In this document: positions 2,047 through 23,800 of the stretch, one piece after another
Layout of the letters: every line of letters begins with the position of its first letter
Numbering within the stretch: position 1 is the stretch's first letter
IMG/VR virus record: IMGVR_UViG_3300042363_000450
Location: 1 to 27,298 of that record
Strand: one strand, 5' to 3'
Length of the DNA stretch: 27,298 nucleotides
Origin: a virus
Taxonomy: Duplodnaviria; Caudoviricetes
Made by a program: the position numbers and the translations under genes
The notes under the pieces: generated by a model
The model's database searches: none
What the model was told of the DNA's origin: nothing
Seen by the model: only the letters and a program-made list of their open reading frames with translations

Positions 2047-3315
2047 TTATTCCTGAATCTCTTTGAAGGTAAATGTCGCACCAGAGAACGCAAGAGGCAA
2101 CTGCCAGTGGCGTGACCCACCTCGGTTCTTATCGCACCACAGGTTTCTGAGTGCGTCATCAGTGCCGCCATCTGGTTTCTCCACCTTGCTGATGATGAAC
2201 ACACCGTCAGCATCCTGGCCGATTGCCCGTGATTCGCGCAGTTTGCCGGCATCGTTAAGCTGGGAAGCGGTGAGAATGTGGGTGCCAGTGCGTTTCGCGA
2301 CCTGCTTCATCCGGCGTGAGATGCGTGCGATAATCTCCTCGCGAGTCGCGCCTTTCCGGCCTTCGTCCTCCATAAGTTGCAGGTAATCGACGACAGCGAT
2401 GTCATATCCACCATGCTCAATGTCTGACAGGATGTCGGATGCACTTGCTGTGTCGGTATTGACCAGATCACAGCCCATGGCTGAGAGTTGTCTGATTGAT
2501 CGCGAAAGCATATCCTGCTGTCCTCGGCTCATTAAACCGCTGTAGAGCGCACCGTTATCGACTCCGCTGTCTTCACACAGGAGACGCATCGTCTGCTCGC
2601 TGGTGGGCATCTCTAGCGAATACCAAGCGACTCTGGCACCGGCTACCAGTGCATTTCTCGCGCAGTTCTGCATGATTGCCGATTTCCCGTCTGATGGTAA
2701 GCCGGCGAAGACACTGACCCTGCCTTTCTGCAATCCGCCGCATTTCTGGTCGATCATTGGGAAACCGGTTGTCCAGCCTGGTATTGCACCACCTCGTTTC
2801 ATTCGCTCTTCGATCTCATCCATCGTCTGGCTGATCGCGTCCTTGATCGTGATTCGGGACAGTTTGCGAACCACTACGTTATCGACCGCATCCAACGCTG
2901 CTTGTGCTTTTTCGATGGCATTCGCGATTGGTATGCTTTCGTCGGCAAACGCATCCAGCGCCGTCTGGTGCGCTTCGATGTTTCGTCTGGCGAGGTATTT
3001 GTCTTCGACGACTCGCTTGTATTGCAGGTAATTGCTGGAGTGTGGGACAAAGCAGAACAGTTCCGAGATGTATGCGGCACCACCGACCGACTCCAACTCT
3101 CCCTTGTTGCGGAAGTGCTGAGTGAGCAGAGGCGCATCGATTGGGGATCCTGAATCATACAGTGCCACAAGTCCGGTAAAAACCTTCCTGTGGACGTCTG
3201 AATGGAATGCAGAGACATTCAGCGTGTTCCGAGCATCACCAATGCGTTCGACAGGGTCTTGGAGGAAGCAGGAGATGAGCGAACTTTCAGCTTCGTGGGA
3301 ATGAGGTAAGGTCAT
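2047..3315 (-). CDS. dnaB: DnaB-like replicative helicase
   Basis: LPHSHEAESSLI N-terminus, Walker A GLPSDGKS, SLEM, VVDYLQL, ASQLN, LRESRAIGQDAD, KNRGG. Start moved to ATG 3315, which gives an ATGA overlap with the upstream stop. Confidence 0.95.
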   Translation of the reverse strand: MTLPHSHEAESSLISCFLQDPVERIGDARNTLNVSAFHSDVHRKVFTGLVALYDSGSPIDAPLLTQHFRNKGELESVGGAAYISELFCFVPHSSNYLQYKRVVEDKYLARRNIEAHQTALDAFADESIPIANAIEKAQAALDAVDNVVVRKLSRITIKDAISQTMDEIEERMKRGGAIPGWTTGFPMIDQKCGGLQKGRVSVFAGLPSDGKSAIMQNCARNALVAGARVAWYSLEMPTSEQTMRLLCEDSGVDNGALYSGLMSRGQQDMLSRSIRQLSAMGCDLVNTDTASASDILSDIEHGGYDIAVVDYLQLMEDEGRKGATREEIIARISRRMKQVAKRTGTHILTASQLNDAGKLRESRAIGQDADGVFIISKVEKPDGGTDDALRNLWCDKNRGGSRHWQLPLAFSGATFTFKEIQE

Positions 3316-3992
3316 AAACAAGATTGTGGGCGTTGAACTTTTGGTGCTGGTTTCTCGTCTTGATATCGTTTTGCGTTCAGGTAACTAGCTGGATATGGAA
3401 TGTATCTCCCGCCATCTTTTGTCCATTCGTCTGACTTCCGTTGCCAGTTTAATGAGTCGATGACCGCTTGAGCGTCTGGCCTGATTTTATCCCAAGCTTT
3501 TTCTGCATCGGCTTTGGCGATCTTTCTGGGATATGCAGACCAAAATTCTTCAAAACCTTCTGTCGTAGGCTTAAGCTTTTTTTCTTTTTTTGGCGACTCT
3601 TTTTCCGTTTCCGTTTCTTTATCCGTTTCCTTTTCCTTTTCTTGTAGGGTATGGATACCCTTTGGATACCCTTTCAAACCATGTTTTTCAAGACTAATGA
3701 AGATTGGATTGTGAGCCTTACATTCTCTCGAAAGATTGCCATATTGGAACTCAATGAATTTAGGAATAAAGAATTTACCACATGGCAATTTAATAACCCT
3801 ATGAGCAAACTCTGATAGGGTATCCATAGGGTATGAATAGCCTATCTGAAAGGATGCCAGTTCAATGTCGGCATCAATGACTCCAGCATTATCACAGCTA
3901 TCCAAAAGCCATGACCATAAAAGCTTCATTTCAGGTTTTAGCTTCCTGAACCAAGGGTCTTCCCATTTATTAGTTTCGGTAAATCGTTTCAT
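3312..3992 (-). CDS. Replication initiator (lambda O-like / replisome organizer)
   Basis: MKRFTETNKWEDPWFRKL..KLLW..LLDSCDNAG N-domain, KEKEKETDKE linker, FEEFWSAYPRK..K..A.KAW and YIPYPASYLNAKRY C-domain. Lies directly upstream of dnaB. Start set to ATG 3992. Confidence 0.85.
   Translation of the reverse strand: MKRFTETNKWEDPWFRKLKPEMKLLWSWLLDSCDNAGVIDADIELASFQIGYSYPMDTLSEFAHRVIKLPCGKFFIPKFIEFQYGNLSRECKAHNPIFISLEKHGLKGYPKGIHTLQEKEKETDKETETEKESPKKEKKLKPTTEGFEEFWSAYPRKIAKADAEKAWDKIRPDAQAVIDSLNWQRKSDEWTKDGGRYIPYPASYLNAKRYQDEKPAPKVQRPQSCL
3646..3847. repeat. Putative iterons / replication origin inside the initiator gene
   Basis: GGATACCCTTT x2 (3653-3674); palindrome AGGGTAT-GG-ATACCCT (3646-3661); the inverted unit as three 11-bp tandem copies ATAGGGTATCC/ATAGGGTATGA/ATAGCCTATCT (3815-3847). 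Confidence 0.7.
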
Positions 3993-4183
3993 AGATTGCC
4001 CTCCGTCCATTGCGTATTCATCGCCTGTAGAATGTCGATTAAAGCGGGAACACGATCCCATTCAAAAAATACCGCGCACTCTTGATGTGGCGGCTGATCT
4101 TTTTCGCTATCAATAATGAGTATTCCCAATTCGTGGGCTTCAATAACGATTTCTTTTCTGGATTCGAATGTATAAGTGGTCAT
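3989..4183 (-). CDS. Small hypothetical protein (64 aa) translationally coupled to the initiator
   Basis: MTTYTFESRKEIVIE... from ATG 4183. Its stop overlaps the initiator start (ATGA). Confidence 0.65.
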   Translation of the reverse strand: MTTYTFESRKEIVIEAHELGILIIDSEKDQPPHQECAVFFEWDRVPALIDILQAMNTQWTEGNL

Positions 4184-4192
4184 AAACAAGGC

Positions 4193-4316
4193 CGCCCCAG
4201 AACTCCAAGGTTGGAAACCGTCATTGCTCGGCGTCCTTGAAGGCTGGGGCGTTTTATTTCTTTGTTCATGTTGCAATGTAATCTTTAAGCCGTTTCCACG
4301 CGGCTGCCTTGCGGCA
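4193..4316 (-). ncRNA. Structured leader, c4/CI-like antisense RNA plus its target
   Basis: Minus strand has TGCC-GCAA-GGCA and GCCG-CGTGGAAA-CGGC hairpins, then a long stem CGCCCCAG...CTGGGGCG that encloses GTTTCCA, complementary to the TGGAAAC loop sequence. Confidence 0.55.
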
Positions 4317-4320
4317 AAGG

Positions 4321-4348
4321 ATGCTATTTGGCAGTAACTGCCGAGCAA
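4321..4348 (-). promoter_or_regulatory. Sigma70-like promoter with a palindromic operator in the spacer
   Basis: TTGCTC-16 nt-TAGCAT on the minus strand. The spacer holds the palindrome GGCAGT-N-ACTGCC (4330-4342). Confidence 0.55.
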
Positions 4349-4376
4349 GCGATTTTTATGATTCTAAGAACGCTTT

Positions 4377-4437
4377 GCCGAACCTGCGCTGCACCGAACT
4401 GTGCCATGAGGCTTAGTCGGTGAGCTGGCTGTTCAGC
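4377..4437 (+). mobile_element. Integron attC-like recombination site (61 bp)
   Basis: GCCGAAC / CTGC / GCT-G-CACCGA-A-CT ... AG-TCGGTG-AGC / TGGCT / GTTCAGC: paired R boxes, 4/5-nt unpaired spacer, two extrahelical bases and a short terminal hairpin. Confidence 0.7.
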
Positions 4438-4631
4438 GGAAGAATGTCTCCAAGAACGGCTCGGATTGTGCGGATTTCCTGCGAGGTCAGTTCTCCGCAA
4501 CGGAGCCTCAACCCCTCATCGCTCTGATCCCGCCAGTCGATCACTCGTCGTTGCGTCTGCATGGATTCCGCCATCAGTGCCTCGCGACAGTCACAGCCAA
4601 AGTGGCATGTCATACATATTGGGTTATTCAT
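4413..4631 (-). CDS. Hypothetical protein ending inside the attC-like site
   Basis: 72 aa with CxxCxxxCxC and LRLRCGELTSQEIRTIRAVL. The last residues LNSQLTD are encoded by the right arm of the attC-like site. Confidence 0.7.
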   Translation of the reverse strand: MNNPICMTCHFGCDCREALMAESMQTQRRVIDWRDQSDEGLRLRCGELTSQEIRTIRAVLGDILPLNSQLTD

Positions 4632-4661
4632 AGTTAGGTATTCAAAAAGTTCTGGATGTCC

Positions 4662-5537
4662 TCATACAATCCCATCTCCACCAGCATCTAGTGACTCGTC
4701 AAGAGGCTTGATGAATTTAATGAAATTGATTGGGAGTCCGCAATGATGGCAGAATTTGTAACCTTGGAAGGCCGGTGGCGCATGCTCAAAGCACATGCAC
4801 TGCCTGCATCCTGTGTCCCAGTTGCCGTCATAGTCTGACCTCCAATCACAAAAATTGTTGGCTGGGTCAATAAGCTTGGCAGCCATGTATGCAGACAAAG
4901 CGGCGTCTTGCGAAGGCGTGGTGCCGTATATCGGTGATAGGCCGCCGATGGACTTAGCCAGGCCATCGGCTAAGGCCCGCAACTTGGCAAGTTGAACGGC
5001 CTGCCTTTGGATTGTCTGAACATCGCGGGCGGATGCGTGGATGTGCGATTGCGTCCGCTCTTGAAGACGTTCGAGGAGTTCGGTGATGCCGTGCTCAAGA
5101 TTACTGATTCTATCCTCATAATTCTGCTCTTTGATCTCCTGTGCCTTTTCTGGATTGCATCTCTCGCATCCGTCTCCGACGAGTCGGGTTGACAAGGAAC
5201 ACTGGCATACCTCACTCTTTGCCTTCGCGGCATTAAGCTCGCGCTCTAGTTGGCGGGCGTGATCAAGCATAAAGTTATAAATAGCAGACTCCTGACATGC
5301 CGACAATAACCCGTCATTGAGTTGGTCTGTTCGTGGTGTTGGTGACGAGTCTGGTTTCGTTACCAACTCCGTAAGCACCGCATCCCGAACAGCGGCGGCG
5401 AATGCTTGGCGGGCGGGTTCGTCGGGAATCCATGAATGTGATTTTTCCGACACTCCCATGTAATGGCAGCAGAGTCGGTCACTAGCAAATGCCGCTGCGG
5501 CTCCAATGTCTGCAAGTTCTTTAAGTGTGTGTGTCAT
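4662..5537 (-). CDS. Mosaic hypothetical protein with Cys-rich modules
   Basis: 291 aa containing TPRTD...ARQLEREL, CQCS...CERCNP, a coiled coil and a C-terminal C..W.TGC...FCHHCG zinc ribbon. Confidence 0.75.
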   Translation of the reverse strand: MTHTLKELADIGAAAAFASDRLCCHYMGVSEKSHSWIPDEPARQAFAAAVRDAVLTELVTKPDSSPTPRTDQLNDGLLSACQESAIYNFMLDHARQLERELNAAKAKSEVCQCSLSTRLVGDGCERCNPEKAQEIKEQNYEDRISNLEHGITELLERLQERTQSHIHASARDVQTIQRQAVQLAKLRALADGLAKSIGGLSPIYGTTPSQDAALSAYMAAKLIDPANNFCDWRSDYDGNWDTGCRQCMCFEHAPPAFQGYKFCHHCGLPINFIKFIKPLDESLDAGGDGIV

Positions 5538-5776
5538 TGTGTAGGTGCCTTATATTTTGAGAGTTTAGTGACCTTCAGTGGATATCCGAGATCAACTGCC
5601 CACTTCCGCATATCGTCGATATTGTATCCAACTCGGCGTTCTGCTTTTGATCCTGGGTATCCTGCCAGCAGGATTGCGTTTGCACGCTTCAGTATCCGAA
5701 ATTTTTCATCATTTGTTAGTGCAGCATGCAGAGCATACTTCCTTCGACCTGCTTCGGTTCGTTCTGTTGTGTTCAT
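5534..5776 (-). CDS. Hypothetical basic protein, possibly HTH
   Basis: 80-aa ORF with an ATGA overlap to the downstream gene. Confidence 0.65.
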   Translation of the reverse strand: MNTTERTEAGRRKYALHAALTNDEKFRILKRANAILLAGYPGSKAERRVGYNIDDMRKWAVDLGYPLKVTKLSKYKAPTQ

Positions 5777-5796
5777 TGTTTTGTTTATTGATGTTA

Positions 5797-6222
5797 TCAG
5801 AAATGAATTTCTTCAGTAGAATCAAGGTCAGGCTCAGGCTTTTGATAAGCGATCTTGCGTGACGGCAATTGATCTGATTGCTCTGGCATTGCTGGTTGAG
5901 CAGATCTTGCTTTGTCATTTGGCAGCAAGGTGAACTGGGTGACAACGAAGATGAGTTTGCGCTTTTCATCGCCGGTTGTCTTATCGTTCCACTTATCCTC
6001 ATCAAGCCTGGTTTCGAGCGCAACAACGTGACCTTTCTTCACAAAGTTAGCAAAAGTCTCAGCCGGCTTTTTCCAGATTTTGAAATCCAGAAACACGGTT
6101 TTCTTTTTGTCACCAAATCCAATGTCAAGTGCTCCGCTGAATTGAGCAACTGCTGACCCATCAGGAGTGTAACGGATGTCAGGATCACGAGTTAGGCGGA
6201 CGATAAATTGTTGTGCGTTCAT
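5797..6222 (-). CDS. ssb: Single-stranded DNA-binding protein
   Basis: RLTRDPDIRYTPDGSAVAQF, W.K.AE....VKKG..V, and acidic tail ending EEIHF. Start set to ATG 6222. Confidence 0.92.
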   Translation of the reverse strand: MNAQQFIVRLTRDPDIRYTPDGSAVAQFSGALDIGFGDKKKTVFLDFKIWKKPAETFANFVKKGHVVALETRLDEDKWNDKTTGDEKRKLIFVVTQFTLLPNDKARSAQPAMPEQSDQLPSRKIAYQKPEPDLDSTEEIHF

Positions 6223-6226
6223 TTGG

Positions 6227-6517
6227 TTATTTCTTTTTAAGGTTGGTTGATTCTGAAGTTGATGCTGCGTTCCACAGTTTGGTGACGATATCTGGCGGGA
6301 TGCAATGCGTTGAGCTACCACACAACCAGTTAACGATTCGCGACATTGGAATTTTGGATTTCTCCGAGAGTCGTTTGAGAGTGACCTCATTGCGAATCAT
6401 CTCTGATCGGATTAGTTTGGAAAGATCACGAGACAAATTGTCTGCCTCGATTGTTTGCTGAGACGCAATAACTCGTGATCGAGCGAGTGCTTTTCTCATG
6501 GGCTGGATGCTATTCAT
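6227..6517 (-). CDS. XRE/Cro-like HTH protein
   Basis: VTLKRLSEKSKIPMSRIVNWLCG fits an HTH pattern. Start set to ATG 6517. Confidence 0.6.
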   Translation of the reverse strand: MNSIQPMRKALARSRVIASQQTIEADNLSRDLSKLIRSEMIRNEVTLKRLSEKSKIPMSRIVNWLCGSSTHCIPPDIVTKLWNAASTSESTNLKKK

Positions 6518-6881
6518 TTTCTTTTGTGATCGTAATTTCGATGCGTGGATTTCTGCTGTCCTTTGCGAAGACCGGTCTTTCCGGCCACAGTGCTCTGTCG
6601 TTGACGATAATGCCGGCATCAGCAATCCCATCTTCAGCCGCTTTCAGCGATGCCATGAAATTTGATGGATCAGGGAATGCTTTTGTCTTGAAGAATGCTT
6701 TGGCGTTGAGCTTTGCTTTTTTCCATTTTGGTTGCTGTTCATTTCTGAGAGCACAGAGCGATGCCGCCCAGGCATGCATTCGATACTTTTTCACATGCTT
6801 CGCTTTCACAGCCCAGTGGCACCGAGCGTTTGGCGATAGCATGCGCGGAGGCAGGTCGAGCACTATTGTTATTTGTTCCAT
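6510..6881 (-). CDS. rusA: RusA-like Holliday junction resolvase
   Basis: LPPRMLSPNAR.HW, PDPSN..ASLKAAEDGIADAGII.ND, and PRIEITI. Confidence 0.8.
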   Translation of the reverse strand: MEQITIVLDLPPRMLSPNARCHWAVKAKHVKKYRMHAWAASLCALRNEQQPKWKKAKLNAKAFFKTKAFPDPSNFMASLKAAEDGIADAGIIVNDRALWPERPVFAKDSRNPRIEITITKENE

Positions 6882-7150
6882 CTGCGTTCCCTTTCTGCGT
6901 CGTATGCCTGATCTGACTCGTGATCACATTTATCACAGTCTCCCCATTCGTTACCATGCTTGCAGCAATCTAACGTGTAATGCTCAGGCTCGTATTGCTC
7001 AAATATGGATTCGGGATATTGATCGAAATCAGGGTCAATAGTTTTCCCACATAGAGTGCAAACGCAGGATCCATCTTCCATCACGTCCATCATCTCATCG
7101 CAGCACTCTGGTGCTTCAGGGTAGTCAGGTGGATCGTCTCGGTGGGTCAT
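6869..7150 (-). CDS. Acidic Cys-rich hypothetical protein
   Basis: 93 aa with CC...CxCxxC and CCKHG...CDKC. Overlaps both neighbours. Confidence 0.7.
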   Translation of the reverse strand: MTHRDDPPDYPEAPECCDEMMDVMEDGSCVCTLCGKTIDPDFDQYPESIFEQYEPEHYTLDCCKHGNEWGDCDKCDHESDQAYDAERERRWNK

Positions 7151-8325
7151 GATGCGCCCTCCAGTGCGATGCCTTTGACGATCTCCATGCTTCCTTTGCT
7201 CGTTTCTGTAGCATCGTGCAAGACCTCATCGACCAGGTTGTCGAGTGCCTTGCCTTTTGCGCCAGTTCCTTGTTTGATCAAAGTCTTCACGCTTCCGATT
7301 GGGATGGAGCATTCCGCCGCAAATGCATCACCGGTGACGCCATGCGCCGATAGACGATTGAAGACGGTAGTGACATCTGACACGCTGCGACGACCTTTCT
7401 TTTCGCGCAGAGAGTAACCATCGATCTCGCCGGCTGCGATGCGCTTGCGAAGCTCAAGATCATGAGCGACAAGAAACCACTCCATGAACTTTCGACCATG
7501 CTCGTATGTGCGGACAAGCATTTCATTGGACATGGAGGTGTGGTCGCCCATGCGGGCAAAGATTTGTGCTTTGACCTGCTCATCCGTGCCAGAGATTGTG
7601 TCAGGGTTGATCACGTCTGTAACCGTTAAAGCAGCGGACTGAAACGCAGTGCAACTCATCTTCGCCTTGCACCACTTGCAGTGATCGCCGGCGACAGCGT
7701 CTGCGGATGTCGATGTCTCCGCTTTGCTCAGTGTGCTGATCATCGTGTTCTGTGCCAGCATCAATGCCTCAGTGTCGTAATGCGCCACCGTTGGTTTACC
7801 GGCCCAAGGCTGGATAATTGCAACTGCTGCTGTCTCAATCGCCCGATACATGGACACGAGTGCTGCCAGTGCCATGAGTTGGTGATTATCGACCGCATCA
7901 GCAGTGGTGCCGCGACCGGTTTTGTAGTCGAGGATCAGAGCAAATGTGCCATCAATGATGATCACATCTGCCTGACCGGTGAAGCGTAGAGCAATGCGAG
8001 CACCGTCTTTGACGACGACCACCTTGCCAAACTGTGTCAGACCGAGACGCACTTCTTTCAGCGTCAACACCTCTGGGTTGCTGATATATTGAGCAATCAA
8101 GTCATCTGCTTGGGCTTTGCACATGTCATGCGTCTGCTCTTCATCCGCTGACAGAGTGCTCATTTCAGCCTCGCCGGCAAGCACCGCATGGATGCGTGTT
8201 CCCGACGCTGCCGCTGCGCTTTCCGTGTCCTCCATGCCGAGGGACATTTGGTGCGATGGAGGACACTCCACAAGCCTTTCAAATGCGCTTGCTGATGGTA
8301 AACCGTGTCTTGGGTCTGTGTTCAT
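7147..8325 (-). CDS. Cas4-like PD-(D/E)XK exonuclease (DUF2800-type)
   Basis: SAS..ERL.ECP.S, GTRIH, GQAD, LDYKTG, QL, IIQP, and GDHCKWCKAKMSC (1+3 Cys, Fe-S pattern). Confidence 0.85.
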   Translation of the reverse strand: MNTDPRHGLPSASAFERLVECPPSHQMSLGMEDTESAAAASGTRIHAVLAGEAEMSTLSADEEQTHDMCKAQADDLIAQYISNPEVLTLKEVRLGLTQFGKVVVVKDGARIALRFTGQADVIIIDGTFALILDYKTGRGTTADAVDNHQLMALAALVSMYRAIETAAVAIIQPWAGKPTVAHYDTEALMLAQNTMISTLSKAETSTSADAVAGDHCKWCKAKMSCTAFQSAALTVTDVINPDTISGTDEQVKAQIFARMGDHTSMSNEMLVRTYEHGRKFMEWFLVAHDLELRKRIAAGEIDGYSLREKKGRRSVSDVTTVFNRLSAHGVTGDAFAAECSIPIGSVKTLIKQGTGAKGKALDNLVDEVLHDATETSKGSMEIVKGIALEGAS

Positions 8326-8579
8326 TTGGATTCTCCTTTCGCTTTGGCGATTGCTGCGCGTGCAGCTTTGACAATGAGATGTTTGTCTGAATATCCGCTG
8401 TCCTGCATGGAGGTGACGGTTTGCTCCAAAGCCTCCAGCAACTCAGGAGCGGCTAATGATTGGCGCTCAATCCTTTTGCAAAGTTGAACCCATAAATAGG
8501 GCGCGTTTTCCTCTTCAAGCACTCCATCGCGATCAAATATTTTGTTGAGCAGTGCTAGCGTTTGCGGTGTGTCGCTCAT
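8322..8579 (-). CDS. Hypothetical protein with AAPELLEAL motif
   Basis: MSDTPQTL... from ATG 8579, preceded by AAGGAGG. AAPELLEAL...ARAAIAKAKG is a common phage early-protein tail. Confidence 0.75.
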   Translation of the reverse strand: MSDTPQTLALLNKIFDRDGVLEEENAPYLWVQLCKRIERQSLAAPELLEALEQTVTSMQDSGYSDKHLIVKAARAAIAKAKGESK

Positions 8580-8580
8580 A

Positions 8581-9516
8581 TTATTTGCCTCCTTTCTTCG
8601 CGAGTTCAGCGAGTTGGATGAAATTGTCGTCGAGGAATTTGAGCAACTCGGATCCTGCCTCATTGATCGGGTAGTAATTCTCGCCGCCTTCGCCGTTTGC
8701 CTGCAAAGTCTCCAGCATAGTCGACCAATGGATGCCGGCGGCATCGAGACGATCAATGATGCGATCGGTCAATGACTTAACCGGTTGCGCCTTGCTTTCC
8801 TCTTCAGCCTCCAGCTTCGCGATCTCAGCCTTGTAGACCGGCACCTCTGGAATGTCCTTTGGTTCCTCCACCTTTTTTGGTTTCTCGATAAACAGTTTGC
8901 CGGCCTTTGCTGCGACCGGTGTCACATCGCGCACAGCAGCATCTTGCGCTTCCTCTGCGGTAAGCATTCCCAGAGTGATGTCAGGAGCGTATAGACGGGC
9001 AAAGAATGCCGCTGCACGGTAGCGCAGCATGAGTTCAGGCATCGTGAGCCATTTGCTGCCTGATTTAGTGCTCCAGCCTTCAGACTTTGCCATAGCCAGT
9101 GTGATCTTTGGCCCATCAAGCACAGTGCCGTCATCTTTCGACTTTGCCCATGCAATGCAAGAGCGGTCACCGGTGCCTTCGGTGCCATCCATGCGGAATT
9201 GAAGAGGCTCAAATCGACCGCTGGAATTGACCATTGCGATCAGGAATGTGGCTCGAAAGCTGGGGCGACCGTGGATGATATCCACGTTCTGCAAGACCAT
9301 GAACGGGTCTGCTCCGAGACGCTTTGCGATGCCGATGCCGATGGCGCAGTTGGCAATGTTGCCCTGAAATTCCTTTGGGACAAGCGAGCTGGATGCGAAC
9401 ATCTTGGCCTGACGTTGCAGCATGTCGAATGCTGCTGACTCCCGCTGAATTTGAACGTCTGTGATTTCTGTGGTGGTGATTTGTGTGCTCATTGTCGTTG
9501 TGTTTCGTTGGTTCAT
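8581..9516 (-). CDS. RecT/Red-beta-like single-strand annealing protein
   Basis: SSLVPKEFQGN.ANC, PFMVLQN..II.GRPSF, GSKW.TMPELMLRYRAAAFFARLYAPD..LGM. Close to the exonuclease. Alternative start at 9492. Confidence 0.8.
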   Translation of the reverse strand: MNQRNTTTMSTQITTTEITDVQIQRESAAFDMLQRQAKMFASSSLVPKEFQGNIANCAIGIGIAKRLGADPFMVLQNVDIIHGRPSFRATFLIAMVNSSGRFEPLQFRMDGTEGTGDRSCIAWAKSKDDGTVLDGPKITLAMAKSEGWSTKSGSKWLTMPELMLRYRAAAFFARLYAPDITLGMLTAEEAQDAAVRDVTPVAAKAGKLFIEKPKKVEEPKDIPEVPVYKAEIAKLEAEEESKAQPVKSLTDRIIDRLDAAGIHWSTMLETLQANGEGGENYYPINEAGSELLKFLDDNFIQLAELAKKGGK

Positions 9517-14554: not shown

Positions 14555-14815
14555 TTATTCAGTCCACAGGATTACAATTCCACCACCCAAGGTGATCGAG
14601 GATCCACGAATCGGATAGTAGCCGACTGGCAAGACGACACTCGCCAAACCTGTAGTGTCACCGGTGTAAGCCGTGTCATCAGGATTGCCGGCAGTTGGTG
14701 CGACAACAGTCGTGATAGTAGCCTCAGAGACGACCGAAAAGCCGTAAAAGTTGGCAGCAGTTGCCGCTGTGTTCTTGACTACTTTGTAGCCTTTGGACGA
14801 GTGATCTCGGTTCAT
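14555..14815 (-). CDS. Small beta-rich hypothetical virion protein
   Basis: 86-aa ORF at the head of the tail fibre block. Confidence 0.7.
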   Translation of the reverse strand: MNRDHSSKGYKVVKNTAATAANFYGFSVVSEATITTVVAPTAGNPDDTAYTGDTTGLASVVLPVGYYPIRGSSITLGGGIVILWTE

Positions 14816-14864
14816 GTGGTATGGTGATCTAAATTATCAAATTTGCAACTCATTATTGAGAACG

Positions 14865-17800
14865 TCAGTCTTCTTTGCCGTAGAATAGGGTCGAAGTGTC
14901 TTTGAAGACTCGGTCGGCAATACCTGGTGCGGATCCAGCCGGCGAGAATGGAGTGACCATCGCGCCCCCAGCCTTCATGATTTGCCATGCTCCACCAAGG
15001 TAATCTTCGTTTTCCATATTCTCTGGCAATTTCTTGATCGACTGAAGTAATTGATCAGACATATCCACCATTGGGTTTGTCGAAGATCTCCAGTTTCTCG
15101 GCGCATCCTGCTTTTCTCCGGTGAGTTGCTCGGTCGCCGCAGCAACTGCTGATGCAATAAAGAACTCAGCAGCAGCACCAAGCAGGAACAATCCCTGTAA
15201 CGGCCCAACGATCGCAGCGCGGATGAAGTTGTCGAGTTCCCACTCTTTGTCGTCGTCCTTGAATAGCGACCGAGTGACAGCATTAGCGACTTGGAACATC
15301 AGCCCAGGAATGACCCAATAAGCTAAGACCTTCCGCATTGTTTCCTCGTTGGTCGCTCCTCCCCGCTTCCATTTCATCACTGCCTCACCAACAAGTCCAA
15401 GTTTCTGTCGAGGATCCGAGGAAAACATCGACAGCAGGTTGAAGACTCCGCTGGCATCATTCTCGATCAGTGATCGACCAGACCAGTCATTCGGTTGAGC
15501 GGTTCGACTCACAGCAATCTCCATTTCACGAGCCGCATATTTGTGAGCAGCATCGTCGCCGGCACCGGCATCCTTAGCTTGAGCGAATCGGTCGCCATAG
15601 ACCATTGCCGCCGAATATGAGGTCAGCACAGCATCAGCATATTGGGTCGGCACAGACCCATACACCAATGCGTTCTCAACAAGCCTGAGAATTGCATTCT
15701 TTGATTTACCAGCATTTGCCAGGATGTGCCTGATCTCAGGAGTTCCACCAAGCTCAAGCCGGTTCTGGATGATGTTCGTGTCCCACATCTTGCCCCAATG
15801 CTCAACACCTCGCGTGAATGCCGCCGGCCATCTCGTGATTGGTATTTCACCCAATGAATAGAACACACTCGAAAGCGTCTTGATCGATGTGCCGATATTG
15901 AATGCGAGTGCCTTCATCGCCACACCTGACTTCAGGTTCCTCATCAGTTTTGACGAGTGCATGACGAGTGCGCCTTTGCCAACTCCTCGTGACATTTCAA
16001 GCTGTATCCATGCCGACAGTGTCTGCATTGCCTCTGCGCCATGACCAGACTTGATCGCATTCTGCACATCTGCATTCAGCATCACGGCTTGAGTGTCGCG
16101 AAGGTATTCAGCCATATTCACCCAGTAATCCATTTGCACGAAGTGCGCTTGATAGACTGCAAGTGCGCTTTCAATTCTCAGCGACGACGTGCGTCCTCGA
16201 CGTGATTTGACTGCGCCAGGGTTTACCGATTGCGAGACAACACCAGAGTTCAGCGGATCAAGGTTGGCTTGATTCCCCTGATGGTTTTTTAAGAGTGGAG
16301 CGTAGAACTGTATCTGCGGCATGCGCGTGTGAAACAGTTTCATGAAGACCTCGTTAGCAGTGTCATATTCCGCCGAGTATTCCGCGCCAAACCATGCCAG
16401 CCAGTTTTTGGCATCGTCGCTCATGAATGCCTCAAGCTCGGTCTGGGTAACGTGATCGTAGCCATGCACTGACTGTTGGTCGAGGATGCCTGGCTGTCGC
16501 AATGCCATTGCCATGTAAACAGCCTCCATCTGCGACAGTGGAATCTCAATGCGAGTGCCTGGTGTCTTGATCCTGTCGATGGTCAGGTTGCGCTTGCGTG
16601 CATTTGGCAGATTCGACCATGCATCCATTTCATCTTCCCATAGCTTTGCCTCTTCAGCAGAGTAACCGAATGTGGATGGAGCCTTGATGATCTTCGCCAC
16701 CTCCTCAACGGTTTTGGTGTCGCTTTCTCTGATCTCTCCGCTCAGGTATGTGACTCGACTGCGCTCGACTTTGGTTTCGAGTTTCTCCAGTTCTTTGTCC
16801 AGCTTGATCTTCGACTTGGTGCCATAGAGAGCACGCATGAAATCACGCAGGCTTTTCTTTCGTGCGGCTTGTGTTGTTTCAAACGCATTCACACCGAGGA
16901 TCATGCGCTCATCAAATACATCCGCAGTCTTATTTGACCTGCCAAAGATTGAAGACAGCACGAATCGATGTGAACCGAGTTCGCGAAGGAGTCCCTTCAT
17001 CATGCCCTTTGTAGTGCCTTTGCCTTTATCTTTACCTGCCTGCACTGTCGCTGCATTGGCCGCGCCGGCAAACGCATCAGCCTTGGCCTGCTCGACCATT
17101 TTGGCAATCTCCGCAGCACGAGCCTCGTCGATGATCTTGCGAGCATTGCGCCCCTGCGTCATGAGATCTTTGAGATACTCGTGTGCCACGTCCATCTCTT
17201 CAGCAGTCGTCTGCTTGCCGTAGAGATCGCCAAACACCTCAAGCAATTGACTCTTGGTGAGCGCATCAGCGGCATCTTCAGCAGTCTGTGCCGAGATGAT
17301 CTCAGCCTCATAGCGTGCCGCCTCTTTGACCGTGTCATCAGTCGAAAGGCTTGCCATGTCGATGATCGTGTTCAGTTCGTCCTGCACGGTGACGATAAAC
17401 TTGGATTTCGGAATCTCGCCGGCCTTACCTTTGACCGCAGCAGATTCCAACATCTTGTCGATGCGTTCGCCATACTCCTTCTTCAGGTATCGCTCGACCG
17501 CTTTTTCCATCTTCGGAATGCGCTCCTCAATAAACTTGAGACGTGCCTCGTCGGAAGACAGTTTCACCAATGTTGATATGCTGCCAATAGTGCCGCGAAT
17601 CTCGGTGGGCATCGATGACACAATTGCATCGTGAAGCTGGATCCACCCATTGAGTTTATCCTTCAGCATCGCCGCCTTCGCCTGCTCTGGAGTCGTCTCT
17701 TTTTCGAGCGACTTCTTGACCCAGTCAGGAGTCTTGTCGGTGACCTTGCCGAGCTTTGCAATTCGGCTTGCCTCCATCTCCGCGAGCTTGCGCTTTGCAG

Positions 17801-20800
17801 CACCTGGGCGACCGACATTGTAGAGTGCCTCACCTGAGATCGCTTGAGCACGCTTCAACGCCATCATGCCAATCTTGAGCTTGGCATCAGGTGATCCTTC
17901 AAAGAGCGGGCGCAGAGATTGCTCTATTCGTCCGGTGAAGTCTGATCGGGAGATTGAGAAAGTTGGGCTAGTCGAAGAGGTTTCTTCATCCACCTCAGTT
18001 GTAGACCCAAGCATGCGTTGACCAGTCGCTTCATCAATAGCCTCACTAGAAATAGGAGCACCTTTGGGATCGTAGGTAAAAGCGTAGCCGTATGCATCCT
18101 TGTTTAATCCAGCGACTTCAATGCCTGTCTTAATCTTTGGATTTACAGTAGCGAGATCCCGAATGATGTTGTTATCCCAGTCGCCAGTTTTCCATGTGCT
18201 TTTTGCCTTTTTGATGTTAATCAATAAACGCTCTCCTTGGTGCTCGACTAGGCCAAAACCTTTAGGTGCTTTAAAACTGCCTTCACCAAAAACTTTAAAC
18301 CCCAAACGGTCTTTGCTGGCAATAAAGTTAGCTTGATCGTTGATGATCTTTTGGTTAATCTCGTTAAGATCGGCTCGGCTCACTTGTGGCTTAATCACCA
18401 CTTTGCCAATAGCACTTCTAGCAACACGCTGAGCTATGTCCCAGAGTAATATACTAACGCCTTTAACATTTTGATTATCAAGACCCTCAGACACAGCAAG
18501 AGCACTGAGGGCTGGCAACACAGCAGCTTTGATGTCGGTCTCACCGGTAAGGATGCGAACGTCTTCAGGCACTTTAAAAGCCTTGCCCTCTCGCTTAAGG
18601 CTCATCGCCTCCCACGAACGACCGATGAGATCGGTCATGCGTGAAATAGGATCAGCTTTTTCTACTCCCTGACTTGGCTTTGCGTTTCGTCCGAGACTGC
18701 CTGTGACACGAGAAAGGACATAACTGCGGAGCCTCGCGACAGTATCGAGTCTAAAGCTGTTTGCTGAGCTAGCCTGCCCTCGTCCCTCAACCGTTGATTC
18801 ATCCTTTCGATCGCCTCGTCTTCCGCTTTCTGATTGATAGGATTTCTGCGGGTTGTTTTCATAAGATTCGACTACTTTTTTACTGATTTTAATCTTTGTA
18901 GGACCAAAGACTGTGTCTGTGATTTTTTCTACCTTATCTAATACAGAATCCAATTCAACAGCAAAGTTGCCGTCATAGAACCCACCGTGAATAGAGATGA
19001 CTGACGCGCCTTCATTGTCTGTAAGAACAGTATGCCCACCAATAAATCCGTCACTCATTCGACCTTGTGAGTCTTGCAGTTGTCCAAGTTCAGTCATGAC
19101 TTGGAGAATTTGATTGTCCGTGTATCCTTCTGGAAGGACAATCTCCAGAACTGGTGTCAATTTTTTACCTCCAAGCTTTTCAGTAATCGACGGGTTTCGG
19201 ATGACGTTTCCGCCAGTCTGTTCAAGTGCTTCAGCAAGCGCAATGTTAAACATTGATGTTGCCCATCTCGGTCCTGACATTTCAAAGACCACATTTGGAG
19301 ACATGGTTGCCCTGTAACTGCCGGTGCCAATTCTGACAGACCGCAAATTGATAGGAAGTCGAGATTCATTTAAAGTTTTTTGCATGCCATCCAGAAACCC
19401 TGGACCAGTGACTCTTTCGAGAAGTGTTCGTACTGGGTCGGTCTCTCCGCGCAAAGCTAACTTTTTGAGCACCTCATCAAAAACAGTTTTGTAAAGTTTA
19501 CCACCTTCCTCTGATTGCATTTCAAAAGGCATAAGTTGCCGAGCCTGGGTGGCATAAGCAAGCTCAGCAGCAGATACTGAACCGAGAGCTTTGGACATGT
19601 CTTTGCCTTCAACATTTGAGATGAGATCTTTCACCACATCCCTACCTTTGCTGGCGTCTACTCCAAACTCTTGGAGTTGCTCAAGTAAGGTTTCTGTTGA
19701 ACGAATTTTAGCATTAATTGCAGCCTGCTTTTTACTATCCTTCTCTCCATTTAACTCAGTTTTAAACTCGTTAAGAGCCTTGTTGAGTTGTTTCGTCGCA
19801 GCAGACTCAACTGTGCCGTCTTCAAATGCAATCGAAAGATCTTTTAGTGCATTGACCACTTCGTCGTAACTTGAGAAGTCGCGCATGCTCTTTCTGGGAT
19901 TCTTTACCTTCTCCATGCCCCACCGGTATTCTTGGACGTTGTAAGCCGTCCAAACACTCTTGCCAGCCATACCTCCGGAGGCGTTAATAATGTCAGCCAT
20001 CATGCCGCTGAGGGCTTGAGAAATGTCGTATGTCGGACCCTCGCCGCCAGCAGCCAGCAACATTGCTCCGTCCTCATTTGGTGAGTAGATGCGAATGGTT
20101 TGAGACTCAGGATCAAAGTCTAGGGTTTCGAGTTCTTGTGGACTAAGGTCACTCCATGATGAAACGTTTTTCTTGTTTTCACCGTATCGGTTATGCCAGT
20201 CGAGAACCTGAAGACCTTCAGGCGAATCAATGGAAACGCTGCGGCCGGCTTCTGGTCGAGGATCCACCCAAATGTAATTAGTCTTCTTATTGTCAAGCAC
20301 TTCACCAATAACAAAACCAGCACGCACGTTTCCAAGTGCAGCCTGATCCCACATGTCTGATGTTACCAGTCGGTCAAGCTCACGCTTTAACAACTCAATG
20401 TCGTCCATTGTTTCGACCTTCACCTCAACTCCGCCGGCAGTTTTTACAGAGACACTCAAAGATGTCGCCAGTTTTTTTGCAAGGTTAAGGATGCTGTCAG
20501 GATTTAAATCCAACCTGATTGCTTTGTGAAGTAGTTCAGCCGCACCGTTAAGGTAAAAGTTGCGGACCTTGTTATCAACGCCGGTAAGGTGCATTGCAAA
20601 CGCTTCACCATTTCGCCATTCATCAACAATGGTGCTCATACCAAGCACCTGATTTACTGTGCCTGCTTTGAACCCAGGAGTGAACTCTGAAGCAAACGCG
20701 CTAGCACCACCGCCGATTGCTTTTGCTGCGTTTGAGATGACAGATGCCCTAGGAGACAGAAATGCAAACCACCGCAGATAAAGGTCCGCAGCGTCGATAT

Positions 20801-23800
20801 CTCCAGTCGCAAGGTCATAACCGGCATCAGCCATGCCAGAGTAGAATCGCAAAGAAGCAGATGCAAGTTGAGGCGATGAGGCTGCCCATGTGTGCATGAG
20901 ATTCATCTGCTCATTTAGTTTTGCAATTAACGATTCACTGTCGGAAATTCCAGCAAGACCTGGAGGCAAAGAGTATGCCTTCAAATTCTCTCCTTTTGCT
21001 TTTCCAGTAACAGTGGCAACTGGATCGTAAATGTTGACTCGCGGAGGAGACATTCTGGAAGCCTCATCACCCGCAGGAGTTTTGATCATTATGTCATTCT
21101 GCGCACGCTTGCGAGTTGGGAAAGACGCGCCTTGATCGACGCTGGTCCACAACGCCTCATCGACAATAACTACTGGCTTCACACTCGCTTGAACCTGCTC
21201 AAGAGTAACTTCCTGAGCCATCGAAAAATTGATGTCTGGCGATGCTTGGTTAAACCGTTGACTTAGCGGGATGACATTACCATCGGCATCGTAGGTCACG
21301 GGGTCGGCGGATTTGATTTGATCCTTTGAAAACACTACGATTTCAGCGGTGCCATCTTCTGGATCGTCGGCGTATTTACGAATGAGCGTATCCGCATTAC
21401 CTCGATTCATACTACCTTCTGGCTCGCGTGAAATTTCCAGTTTGCGAGGCTCTAGGAATTTGTGAACAACCGTTCCCTGCTTTCCTGCCCACAATTCGGC
21501 AGTCTCGCGTTTTGGGAAAAAGTAGATGCCGCCTTGAATGGCGTCAGTCTTTACACCACGTCCTGCGTTTTCGGCGCGGAAACCTTCGATTAGTCCCGCC
21601 TTCTTCGCGGCCTCGTCCACCATGGCCTGAGCCTTCGCCATGTCGCCTGCCTTAGCCGAAGCGAGATGCTCAGCGTCTTGCGCGGGCGTGACACGTACCA
21701 TTGACATCGTCACGCCAGCATCCGCAGCAATGCCCGCAGCAGTGTCAACAACGCCATCAGCATTGCGGTTTGATACATTCAGCCCAACGCTCTTTTCAAG
21801 CGCAGCGACGAAGTCCTGGTTGAGTCCGTTCGCATCGTGGATCGCTTTCAATTGAGAAGCGCGATAGAGAATGTTGAGTGTCTTCTCACCGACAAGGTCG
21901 ATGGCATCCTTCAATTCCATGCCGGCAATGCTCGACTGGAGACTGCCAAGGTAGAGGTTGAGCGGCATGTTAGGAGTGAAGGTCGGACGCTCGACAGCTT
22001 TCGTTGTCTGCACATAATACGACTTCGCGATGTGCGAGAATGCCTCAATGATTTCCATGTTGGAAACCTTGTCGTCATCAGTGGTGGCGATGAGAGGCAT
22101 GTGCTTCTGCCCCATCTGCATAGCCTGATCCTTCATCTTTGCTTCAACATCCCTGATCTGTAGAATGAGCCTCGTGCGGCTCGTCGGATCACTCATCAAT
22201 CGTTTCACTCCGACTTCTGCGCTTTCCTCGATGAGGTCGAGAAGACTGCCTCCTTTGTAAAGCGTGATGACTCCAACAGAGATTCCTTCACGCTGCTCAA
22301 TTGAGTTTGTGCCGAGAATCCGGTAGTTCTTATTGTCGTTCGCTTCAGATTCAAGAGTAGCATTCTCAAGAGATACATCTTCAACTGCTCCATCAATTTG
22401 GCCTGTCAGCTTGATGCGCTCTTCGACTTGTGCGGTAGTCGATGGGAACAACTCGGTAAACTGTTTGGTGAACATGTCGTAGTCCATCATCAAGGCAACA
22501 TCAAGACCCTGCTTTTCCTCCAAGGTATTAACCATTGATGTAAGGAATTCCTGCTCTGCTTTTCTGATGGTGATTCGACTGTTTTTCAGATATCGCATCC
22601 ATGCTTCATTCGCTTCACTGAGTGAATCAAATTGTGCGCTGACTCCCTGATCAATGATATTGCCTTTGCCATCCTTCAGAATAGGAGTCGTAAACTGATA
22701 CTTGCCATTGCCAATGTTTGCTGGAGTTCCAAGGCCAAAGTTCTGTCTGGCTTTGTTATGCCATTCAAGTGCCGCTGATTCTCTGATGTTGATTTTTCTT
22801 TTAGATTCCTTGATCTGCTCTGGCGTTGCTTTGTTGCCTTTGTCGAAACCTTTGCGGAATAGTTTATCGACTTCAGTGTAGTTGCCCTTCAAGCCTTCAA
22901 CTGTGATCTGGTTGGCTAAGTCAGGAGCAATGCCTGTTGCCACCATATAGTCAGGCGATGTCATCAATGCGCGTGAGTTCTTCACGTCTGCAATGGAGAT
23001 TCTGCCTGCCATGAGGAATGACACGATCAGTGCCGGCCCAAATGTCTGCTCTGCAATGTCCGAGATCTTCGGCATGCGCTCATCCCAGTCAGCTTTCGAG
23101 ATTCCGCTTTCGATTGACCATGCAGATTGCCACTCAGAAAGCAGATCTTGGGTGAGCAAAGGTGTCGCAGTCTGCATGACCTCTTCAGAGATCTCGGTCG
23201 CCGTTCCGATTACAGTGCGCGTTGCAACGCGAATTGCTGCGCTCTTGACGCTTGTTGTTGCAGCTTTGAGCCATTTGTCGATAAATGGAATCTTGATCTT
23301 TCCTAGCGGCAAAGCATTTGAGATGAATTCCTGAGTTGCCATAAACGGTGCCGAAATAGCACCGACAACCTCTGCGTTCTCAAATGACACTCCTGCGTTT
23401 ACTGCCTCAATAGTTGCCTCATCCCTGAACTGACCTGTCATGATAGCAATCGACGCAGGGCTACTAATGAATGTCGCTGCCAGCAACGGAGTCATGCGTG
23501 CGACTCCAATGCCGGTTTCCTCCCACCAATTATTGCCGGCGATAGGATTGATTTTGCTGTGTGCCATCATCTTTACCTGGCCGGCTAAGACTTGGAGTTC
23601 TCGACGCTTTTTGGCAACATCTACAATTCCCTGCATCTCAGGGATGTTTTGATACAATGAAATTGCTTGTGATGTCAGCATCGACTCAGCCAATGACGCA
23701 GTGCCAGTGACTGCTTTTTCAACCTCTCGATCCATTGCAGTTGCCAGTTTCTGTAGATATGCCTGCTTCTCTTTTGGCGCAGCAGCACCCACTTCACCAA

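Follow-up and report, generated by a model that had tools for sequence, protein, structure and literature searches.

A short attC-type hairpin in a tailed phage that probably closes a backward array of gene cassettes

A hairpin of the attC type lies among the replication genes of a tailed phage and, together with its relatives, points to gene cassettes that are carried backward and exchanged at a single point. The window analysed here comprises 27,298 nt and is the whole of virus record IMGVR_UViG_3300042363_000450 (G000). Our best explanation, which we hold to be rather probable, is that the site at 4377-4437 closes a backward cassette array, that cassettes would enter and leave at G|TT 4431/4432, and that the enzyme is likely a host integron integrase acting in trans. 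Comparison with relatives showed where crossover takes place, what makes up a cassette, that the polarity is reversed, that short sites of this kind are terminal, and that no integrase could be detected in the phage. In the window, the array consists of the anchor and its flanking module only, and no further site was found. The site, its parts and the neighbouring genes are as follows.

4377..4437, - strand: attC-type hairpin of the short 'anchor' family; the - strand is the bottom (recombining) strand and the coding strand
4377..4383, + strand: R'' box, from pairing and the covariance model match
4384..4387, + strand: R''-L'' spacer of 4 nt, by 1 nt shorter than the spacers of host and class 1 sites and conserved in the anchor family
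4388..4425, + strand: L''/L' stem with short terminal loop and extrahelical G4391 and A4398 (bottom strand: C, T), from pairing and fold
4431..4437, + strand: R' box, with the crossover G|TT between 4431 and 4432 and the neighbouring cassette from 4432 on, from comparison with relatives
2047..3321, - strand: DnaB helicase (Pfam and PHROG), used for collecting syntenic relatives
3312..4061, - strand: replication initiation protein, downstream of the site (PHROG 270, E 5e-21)
4356..4376, - strand: methyltransferase remnant, last 7 codons (21-mer comparison across loci and methylase family assignment)
4413..4631, - strand: 72-aa gene; in relatives its 62-aa core is a cassette module, with AAC in frame at site entry and a stop codon from the hairpin arm
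4662..5537, - strand: 291-aa mosaic gene, upstream of the 72-aa module, with parts found in other combinations in relatives

All main genes of the window lie on the - strand. Pfam and PHROG searches assigned a terminase small subunit, DnaB, the replication initiator, SSB, RusA, an exonuclease, a RecT-like protein and an endolysin; there is also an internal virion protein gene, which is adjoined by a gene for a 3220-aa protein (14865-24527, - strand) without a Pfam or PHROG family. The complete 37,677-bp genome G001 is >99% identical to the window, and the rest of it holds head, tail and terminase genes or genes without assignment. The runs containing the stretch are labelled as lake or freshwater metagenomes. 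Contigs of runs X7 and X8 bridge the site without any differing letter, ruling out an assembly artefact. One contig of run X7 carries an allele of window positions 4376-4434 (59 nt, 4 differences) that is embedded in unrelated DNA. The 72-aa protein and a 64-aa protein matched no Pfam or PHROG family, an Rfam search of the window returned nothing relevant, and the DNA of 4330-4640 had no match among GenBank phages; the 72-aa gene has relatives on viral and metagenome contigs. Ahead of the 64-aa gene and the initiator gene, the - strand forms a stem-loop at 4180-4265 (RNA fold of 4180-4345, z -2.64; no Rfam match). A similar leader is present in locus L024, and the stem-loop is possibly a leader controlling the replication genes. 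In L015, a 347-aa open frame (14695-15738, - strand) overlaps the methyltransferase gene of relative G003 in another frame.

In the hairpin, the R'' box (4377-83) pairs with the R' box (4431-37) with one C/A mismatch, which is a G-T pair on the - strand, and spacers occupy 4384-87 and 4426-30. The inner pairs are 4388-90/4423-25, 4392-97/4417-22 and 4399-4400/4415-16, with G4391 and A4398 unpaired, a 2x2 internal loop at 4401-02/4413-14 and a cap at 4403-12. All pairings named in a preliminary description of this DNA were found in the sequence. Folding of the - strand gave -15.2 kcal/mol (z -3.43), a value that none of 200 shuffles equalled; this fold bulges out both extra bases and pairs two bases of the spacers. 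The + strand reached -12.7 kcal/mol (z -2.06), i.e., the bottom strand folds better than the top. A search with an attC grammar returned 4377-4437 as the single match in the window and no match in any of 60 dinucleotide shuffles.

As a reference we used 22 regions around IntI genes from the family of the Verrucomicrobiaceae MAG G006, which carries the short site; in these host regions, 26 attC sites run in the usual direction relative to intI and one runs the opposite way. The covariance model R1, trained on 8 of the 26 host sites only, all of them bacterial attC beside intI, matched 4377-4437 exactly on the - strand with 29.2 bits (E 6e-6, a rough value, as are the E-values of all our own covariance models), the next best match scoring 10.2 bits. 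The same model scores class 1 attC sites at 19.9-43 bits and missed the 51-nt anchor-family site of G003 at E 0.5. A second model, built from three class 1 sites, one TJE1 site and one Shewanella-phage site, ranked the window site first, weakly, with 16.1 bits (E 0.039, equally rough). Alignments A2, A3 and A6, in which the arms were out of register, were excluded from model building. On a score matrix from 16 non-redundant host sites, the window site obtained 29.0, at the low end of the host range of -4.4 to 47.4 and not far above the shuffle maximum of 25.3, a score reached only when a 4-nt spacer is allowed. The weak score on the second model, the matrix result, the G003 site missed by R1 and the lack of 4-nt spacers in host sites count against our best explanation. 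Both covariance models agree with the attC architecture proposed in the preliminary description, which had passed over the 4-nt spacer, the bottom-strand C at the first extra base and the 2x2 loop.

The invariant AAC and GTT of the R''/R' boxes are present and pair in the folded strand, and the two extrahelical bases on the R''-L'' arm, at 4391 and 4398, lie within the attC definition of two or three such bases 6-8 nt apart. The stem pairs covary in an alignment that was fitted to the model. In two respects the site departs from the class 1 pattern. On the bottom strand, its first extrahelical base is C instead of G, and the R''-L'' spacer measures 4 nt, compared with 5 in class 1 sites and 5 or 6 in host sites (0 of 26 with 4). 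The first extra base, a top-strand G, is the same in 24 of the 26 host sites, and the bottom-strand C also occurs in two class 1 array sites, so that G as the first extrahelical base is not universal. HattCI works with a spacer length fixed at 5. As far as the available text on classical attC sites goes (aadA7, VCR; Bouvier et al. 2009, PMC2727003), these sites share with ours R and L boxes, an unpaired spacer, the two extra bases on the R''-L'' arm and the crossover in R', and their length range of 57-142 nt includes that of the window site, whereas the bottom-strand C in place of G, the 4-nt spacer and the reverse polarity set the window site apart. Judged from sequence, the hairpin at 4377-4437 is confirmed as real and of the attC type, with most of the defining features in place and with the spacer and the extra-base identity off the class 1 pattern.

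Comparison with relatives located the crossover. In blast searches, the DNA matches of relatives to the window start at 4427-4431. We aligned 11 contexts for the breakpoint, 8 of which have AAC in register, and in the 7 of these that share one register identity was 0.84 over the 60 bases before AA|C and 0.28 after it. The DNA after AA|C differs in each relative and is usually another attC-type hairpin. L057 and L058 carry the same core as read from the cassette set and failed the motif test in the breakpoint alignment; L054 and L056 show an altered core followed by a hairpin-like arm, and L052 shows none. The 72-aa module is also preceded by a hairpin arm in L055, L056, L064 and L066, and so makes up a full cassette in those loci.

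The closest comparison came from G003 (L062) and L063, which are identical over 1824 bp up to a family site, after which L063 has 251 extra bases. This 251-bp unit consists of a hairpin with an ATG in its loop and a 77-aa ORF, it is bounded by the AA|C of the family site, and its core end pairs perfectly with the R'' of its own hairpin. L062 and L063 form one close pair, compatible with insertion or excision alike. The gene-content breakpoint predicted at GTT 4431 in the preliminary description thus holds in relatives, including this precise cassette difference. Its broader proposal, that the phage gains or shuffles accessory genes through a host integrase, is supported in its first part by the gene switching at G|TT 4431, and the host enzyme is likely. 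Sequence differences occur on the R'' side as well; they are not accounted for by bottom-strand IntI chemistry and count against our best explanation. Eight runs, one of which gave no yield, contained no loose end at 4431 within 85% likeness when approached from the side of the 72-aa gene. L063 and L064 share a near-identical hairpin body and start peptide before two unrelated genes, with the switch directly after R'', an observation that bears on cassette making.

The cassette unit can be written as a hairpin body, then a gene, then the AA of the next core. We parsed 38 cassettes from 23 arrays, taking neighbours <1 kb apart, dropping pairs without AAC/GTT at the parsed ends and setting a few coordinates by hand. 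The R box pairs 4/4 with the cassette's own end in 31 of the 38, as expected if cassettes are circular and cut at AA|C, and with the partner in place in 4 of the 38. Own-circle pairing was better than in-place pairing for 32 cassettes, worse for 3 and tied for 3 (sign test, p 2e-7), and 0 of 5000 random pairings reached this result.

On the R'' side of the site, a DNA methyltransferase gene stands whole behind the anchor in the three closest relatives (L146, L147 and L178), where the anchor occupies the same place before the methyltransferase and initiator genes, and it is deleted in the window. The 21-mer of the methylase end (≤3 mismatches) was found only in G001 and these three among 79 loci. 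The deletion junction lies at the R'' box of the site, with a few bases common to both. Such a short shared stretch, along with the RecT-like gene and the exonuclease in the window and the position of the hairpins on the mRNA strand, where they supply starts and stops, would suit a different account, with the hairpins as relics or RNA signals and with the phage RecT-like annealing protein swapping genes at short shared sequences. However, just 3-8 bases are common at junctions, own-circle pairing would be purposeless without a circular DNA form, and the invariant AAC/GTT, the two bulged bases and the unpaired spacer are recombinase signals. Nor did the coding strand yield a terminator-like site; a sigma-70 and terminator scan stayed at chance level. 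We regard swapping by RecT as quite improbable.

The polarity of the cassettes was read from the 79 dnaB loci, in which a model search returned 61 sites (43 distinct) in 25 loci. The bottom strand lies on the dnaB coding strand in 60 of the 61 model matches. That only 25 of the 79 loci, many with short flanks, gave any model match counts against our best explanation. An ATG/GTG start lies within 33 of 37 longer sites, with an ORF that runs at least 40 codons past the site, and 30 of the 37 are entered with AAC (Asn) in frame 0; a cruder polarity test on the longest open frame agreed for only 22 of 37, which likewise weighs against it. Host cassettes have the normal polarity, with the gene on the top strand before the site in 23 of 26. 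The comparison places the cassette genes on the predicted recombining strand, with starts inside the hairpins, which is the reverse of host integrons. The antisense gene that was said to end inside the site does so, and antisense is the rule in the arrays of relatives. One idea is that, with the polarity reversed, the bottom strand would lie on the lagging-strand template, for which an effect is described in the available text of PMC5371416; GC skew, examined for replication direction, was about zero in G001.

Open frames also cross former sites. In G003, a 334-aa ORF reads through old junctions of the module, and in L054 the module is joined to a domain with which the 291-aa gene of the window ends. 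Both cases are domain fusions across spent sites. A core-like GTT at 4857 coincides with the start of the last domain of the 291-aa mosaic gene; in L054, the domain follows a spent hairpin arm.

The window site belongs to a family of short hairpins. A scan for the two L arms without spacer constraint found 23 loci, comprising 17 full sites (one of them G001) and 6 chance matches, and all 17 full sites carry spacers of 5 nt and 4 nt, the 4 nt being on the R''-L'' side. A second scan with the 4 nt imposed gave 38 loci, and the 4-nt spacer is present in 22 of 22 distinct sequences, a set partly selected for 4. Decay of the site by a 1-nt deletion was ruled out because the 4-nt spacer is conserved. 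Scanning the genome collection for the short site yielded four matches, three by chance inside genes and one real. We tabulated 23 short-site loci, leaving out three duplicates and including two with a downstream flank of <1 kb. In 15 of them all further sites are upstream, 7 lack a second site, and L051 has a further site 5.5 kb downstream; the 7 loci and L051 count against our best explanation. Downstream of the anchor, the end of its own cassette is lacking in 22 of 24 loci; for the window site, the single one in G001, it is absent within 3.9 kb. The ORF upstream of the anchor enters it in frame 0 in 19 of 21 cases and stops within 21 bases. In six groups of loci that share the anchor and the downstream gene, the place before AA|C is taken by 17 different genes.

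Terminal sites of other arrays are also short and have 5-6-nt spacers; an array end therefore does not require 4 nt. Clusters of at least two attC sites without an integrase, the CALIN criterion, occur in relatives such as L147 and L181 and are absent from G001. L181 (8409-11884) has a ten-site backward array after dnaB, in which the same hairpin body recurs on different genes, and its short terminal site is directly followed by a -35/-10-like promoter sequence. From these comparisons, the short hairpin family appears to end arrays and to behave as a fixed anchor would. What is new in this work is the anchor family, attC sites in phages having been published already. A single attC without integrase would by count be a SALIN (Loot et al., 10.1101/2022.09.11.507474); in the available part of that source, however, a SALIN is one cassette dropped at a genome site, whereas the window site lacks its own cassette end and in relatives forms the fixed array end.

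The lack of any other site in the complete genome G001, the deletion suffered by the DNA behind the site and the absence of an inserted-cassette variant of the lineage from eight runs, whose contigs drop rare variants, would also fit an active family of which the window copy is a spent end-piece, kept only as a stop codon and hairpin. We consider this very improbable, given that all boxes are intact, that run X7 has the same 59-nt allele flanked on either side by other genes and that sister sites show a fresh cassette indel.

The source of the enzyme was examined in phage and bacterial genomes. No intI had been seen in the window, which we confirmed, and the complete genome G001 likewise has no PF00589 or TIGR02249 match. 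Among 39 array-bearing or related phage records, 5 have PF00589 matches (1 of 22 near-complete ones), none of which is IntI, and no IntI was found in any of the 39; PF00239 resolvase was absent from all five records examined. By comparison, 46 of 121 genomes of the Verrucomicrobiaceae, the family of G006 and the candidate host family, encode IntI above cut-off. The short site also lies on the phage-like contig L051 of G006, an assignment that rests on MAG binning, and the attC sites of the family share R boxes and extra bases with the window site. More precisely, Verrucomicrobiaceae chromosomal attC sites have the same R boxes and top-strand G and A extra bases six apart, with a mutual model match; they differ in their top-strand genes, which end before or in R'', in their spacer of 5-6 nt and in having intI adjacent. 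A host search by RecT and DnaB gave no close match (0/145, 0/145 and 0/401 bacterial genomes), which weighs against our best explanation; the link to this host family is indirect, through the likeness of the sites and the one MAG contig. Since no IntI was found in the phages and genes switch at G|TT, accessory genes are best read as gained and lost through a borrowed integrase, likely a host integron integrase acting in trans.

The same cassettes and crossover might instead be served by an IntI-like recombinase from other co-infecting phages or elements. In virus Rctr41k (KX853513.1), five sites with 4-nt spacers come after an IntI gene that is in line with the other genes; viral contigs hold eight further genes of the IntI-like kind, and backward cassettes are absent from the host arrays examined. 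The eight viral IntI loci are, however, 36-39% identical to the query, with attC by grammar in only one, and the 39 phage records without IntI apply here as well. Rctr41k resembles our case in its phage-borne sites with a 4-nt R''-L'' spacer, and it differs in having its own IntI, long sites (127-131 nt) and normal polarity. We judge a co-infecting source to be unlikely. The five Rctr41k sites beside a true IntI do provide a precedent for the 4-nt spacer. In this genome (L228), the IntI in line with the operon and the five long attC-like sites span 4680-9434, and the locus is absent from the tables of PMC9892861 that were available.

The preliminary description had also suggested that the phage may integrate through the site. 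One intact site per genome would suffice for the whole phage to enter a host integron as one giant cassette, no integrase was found, and PMC9892861 describes a Vibrio prophage with attC sites on its two flanks. The comparisons lend no support to integration of this kind: no close prophage relative was present in 145 and 401 bacterial genomes (weak negative evidence), all junctions seen at family sites, also on the MAG contig L051, join phage gene to phage gene, and complete relatives are classed as having direct terminal repeats. We consider it highly improbable.

Under our best explanation, that of a backward array served by a host integrase, the coding strand would fold while single-stranded during phage replication, in keeping with the description in PMC2727003, in its available text, of folding on single-stranded DNA and of recombination by the bottom strand only. 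IntI would then join the folded coding strand to the folded attC of a circular cassette. The newcomer would land just upstream of the anchor and be read from the phage operon, its gene starting in its own hairpin loop and stopping in the arm of the next site. The anchor would stay put because it has no cassette end of its own, and would do the job of attI in bacteria.

Phage CALINs have been reported by Qi et al. (2023; PMC9892861), who described 17 of them and found that IntI1 recombined five of six sites tested. These resemble our arrays in having attC without a phage integrase and methyltransferase cargo nearby. Most of their arrays were called typical in structure, and two sites within 3 kb were required, so that a lone site as in the window would be missed. 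Bottom-strand genes, in-hairpin starts, a fixed terminal site and sister-phage cassette indels are not described in the available parts of that paper, and its annotation file may hold backward arrays. In the literature searched, which covers few subscription journals, we found neither backward phage cassettes nor a terminal anchor site described; the available text of PMC9668308 mentions reverse orientation for Spirochaetota integrases only.

In its widest form, which we put forward tentatively and hold at somewhat less than even probability, the proposal is that integrase-less phages run their own backward integron on host IntI. The short hairpin family would replace attI as the docking point, genes would start in the hairpin loop and the swap point would be crossed in one frame, so that whole genes are shuffled and, where a hairpin decays, domains are fused in frame. 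Phage attC sites would thereby turn from stray pieces into a functioning device for gene swapping whose unit, polarity and docking site are defined, and for which L062 and L063 offer a natural before/after genome pair. The 4-nt spacer family would test the geometry tolerance of IntI, and in-frame reading through sites would be a natural route for domain shuffling. If host IntI does the work, an enzyme of bacterial adaptation would also be used by phages to renew their accessory genes.
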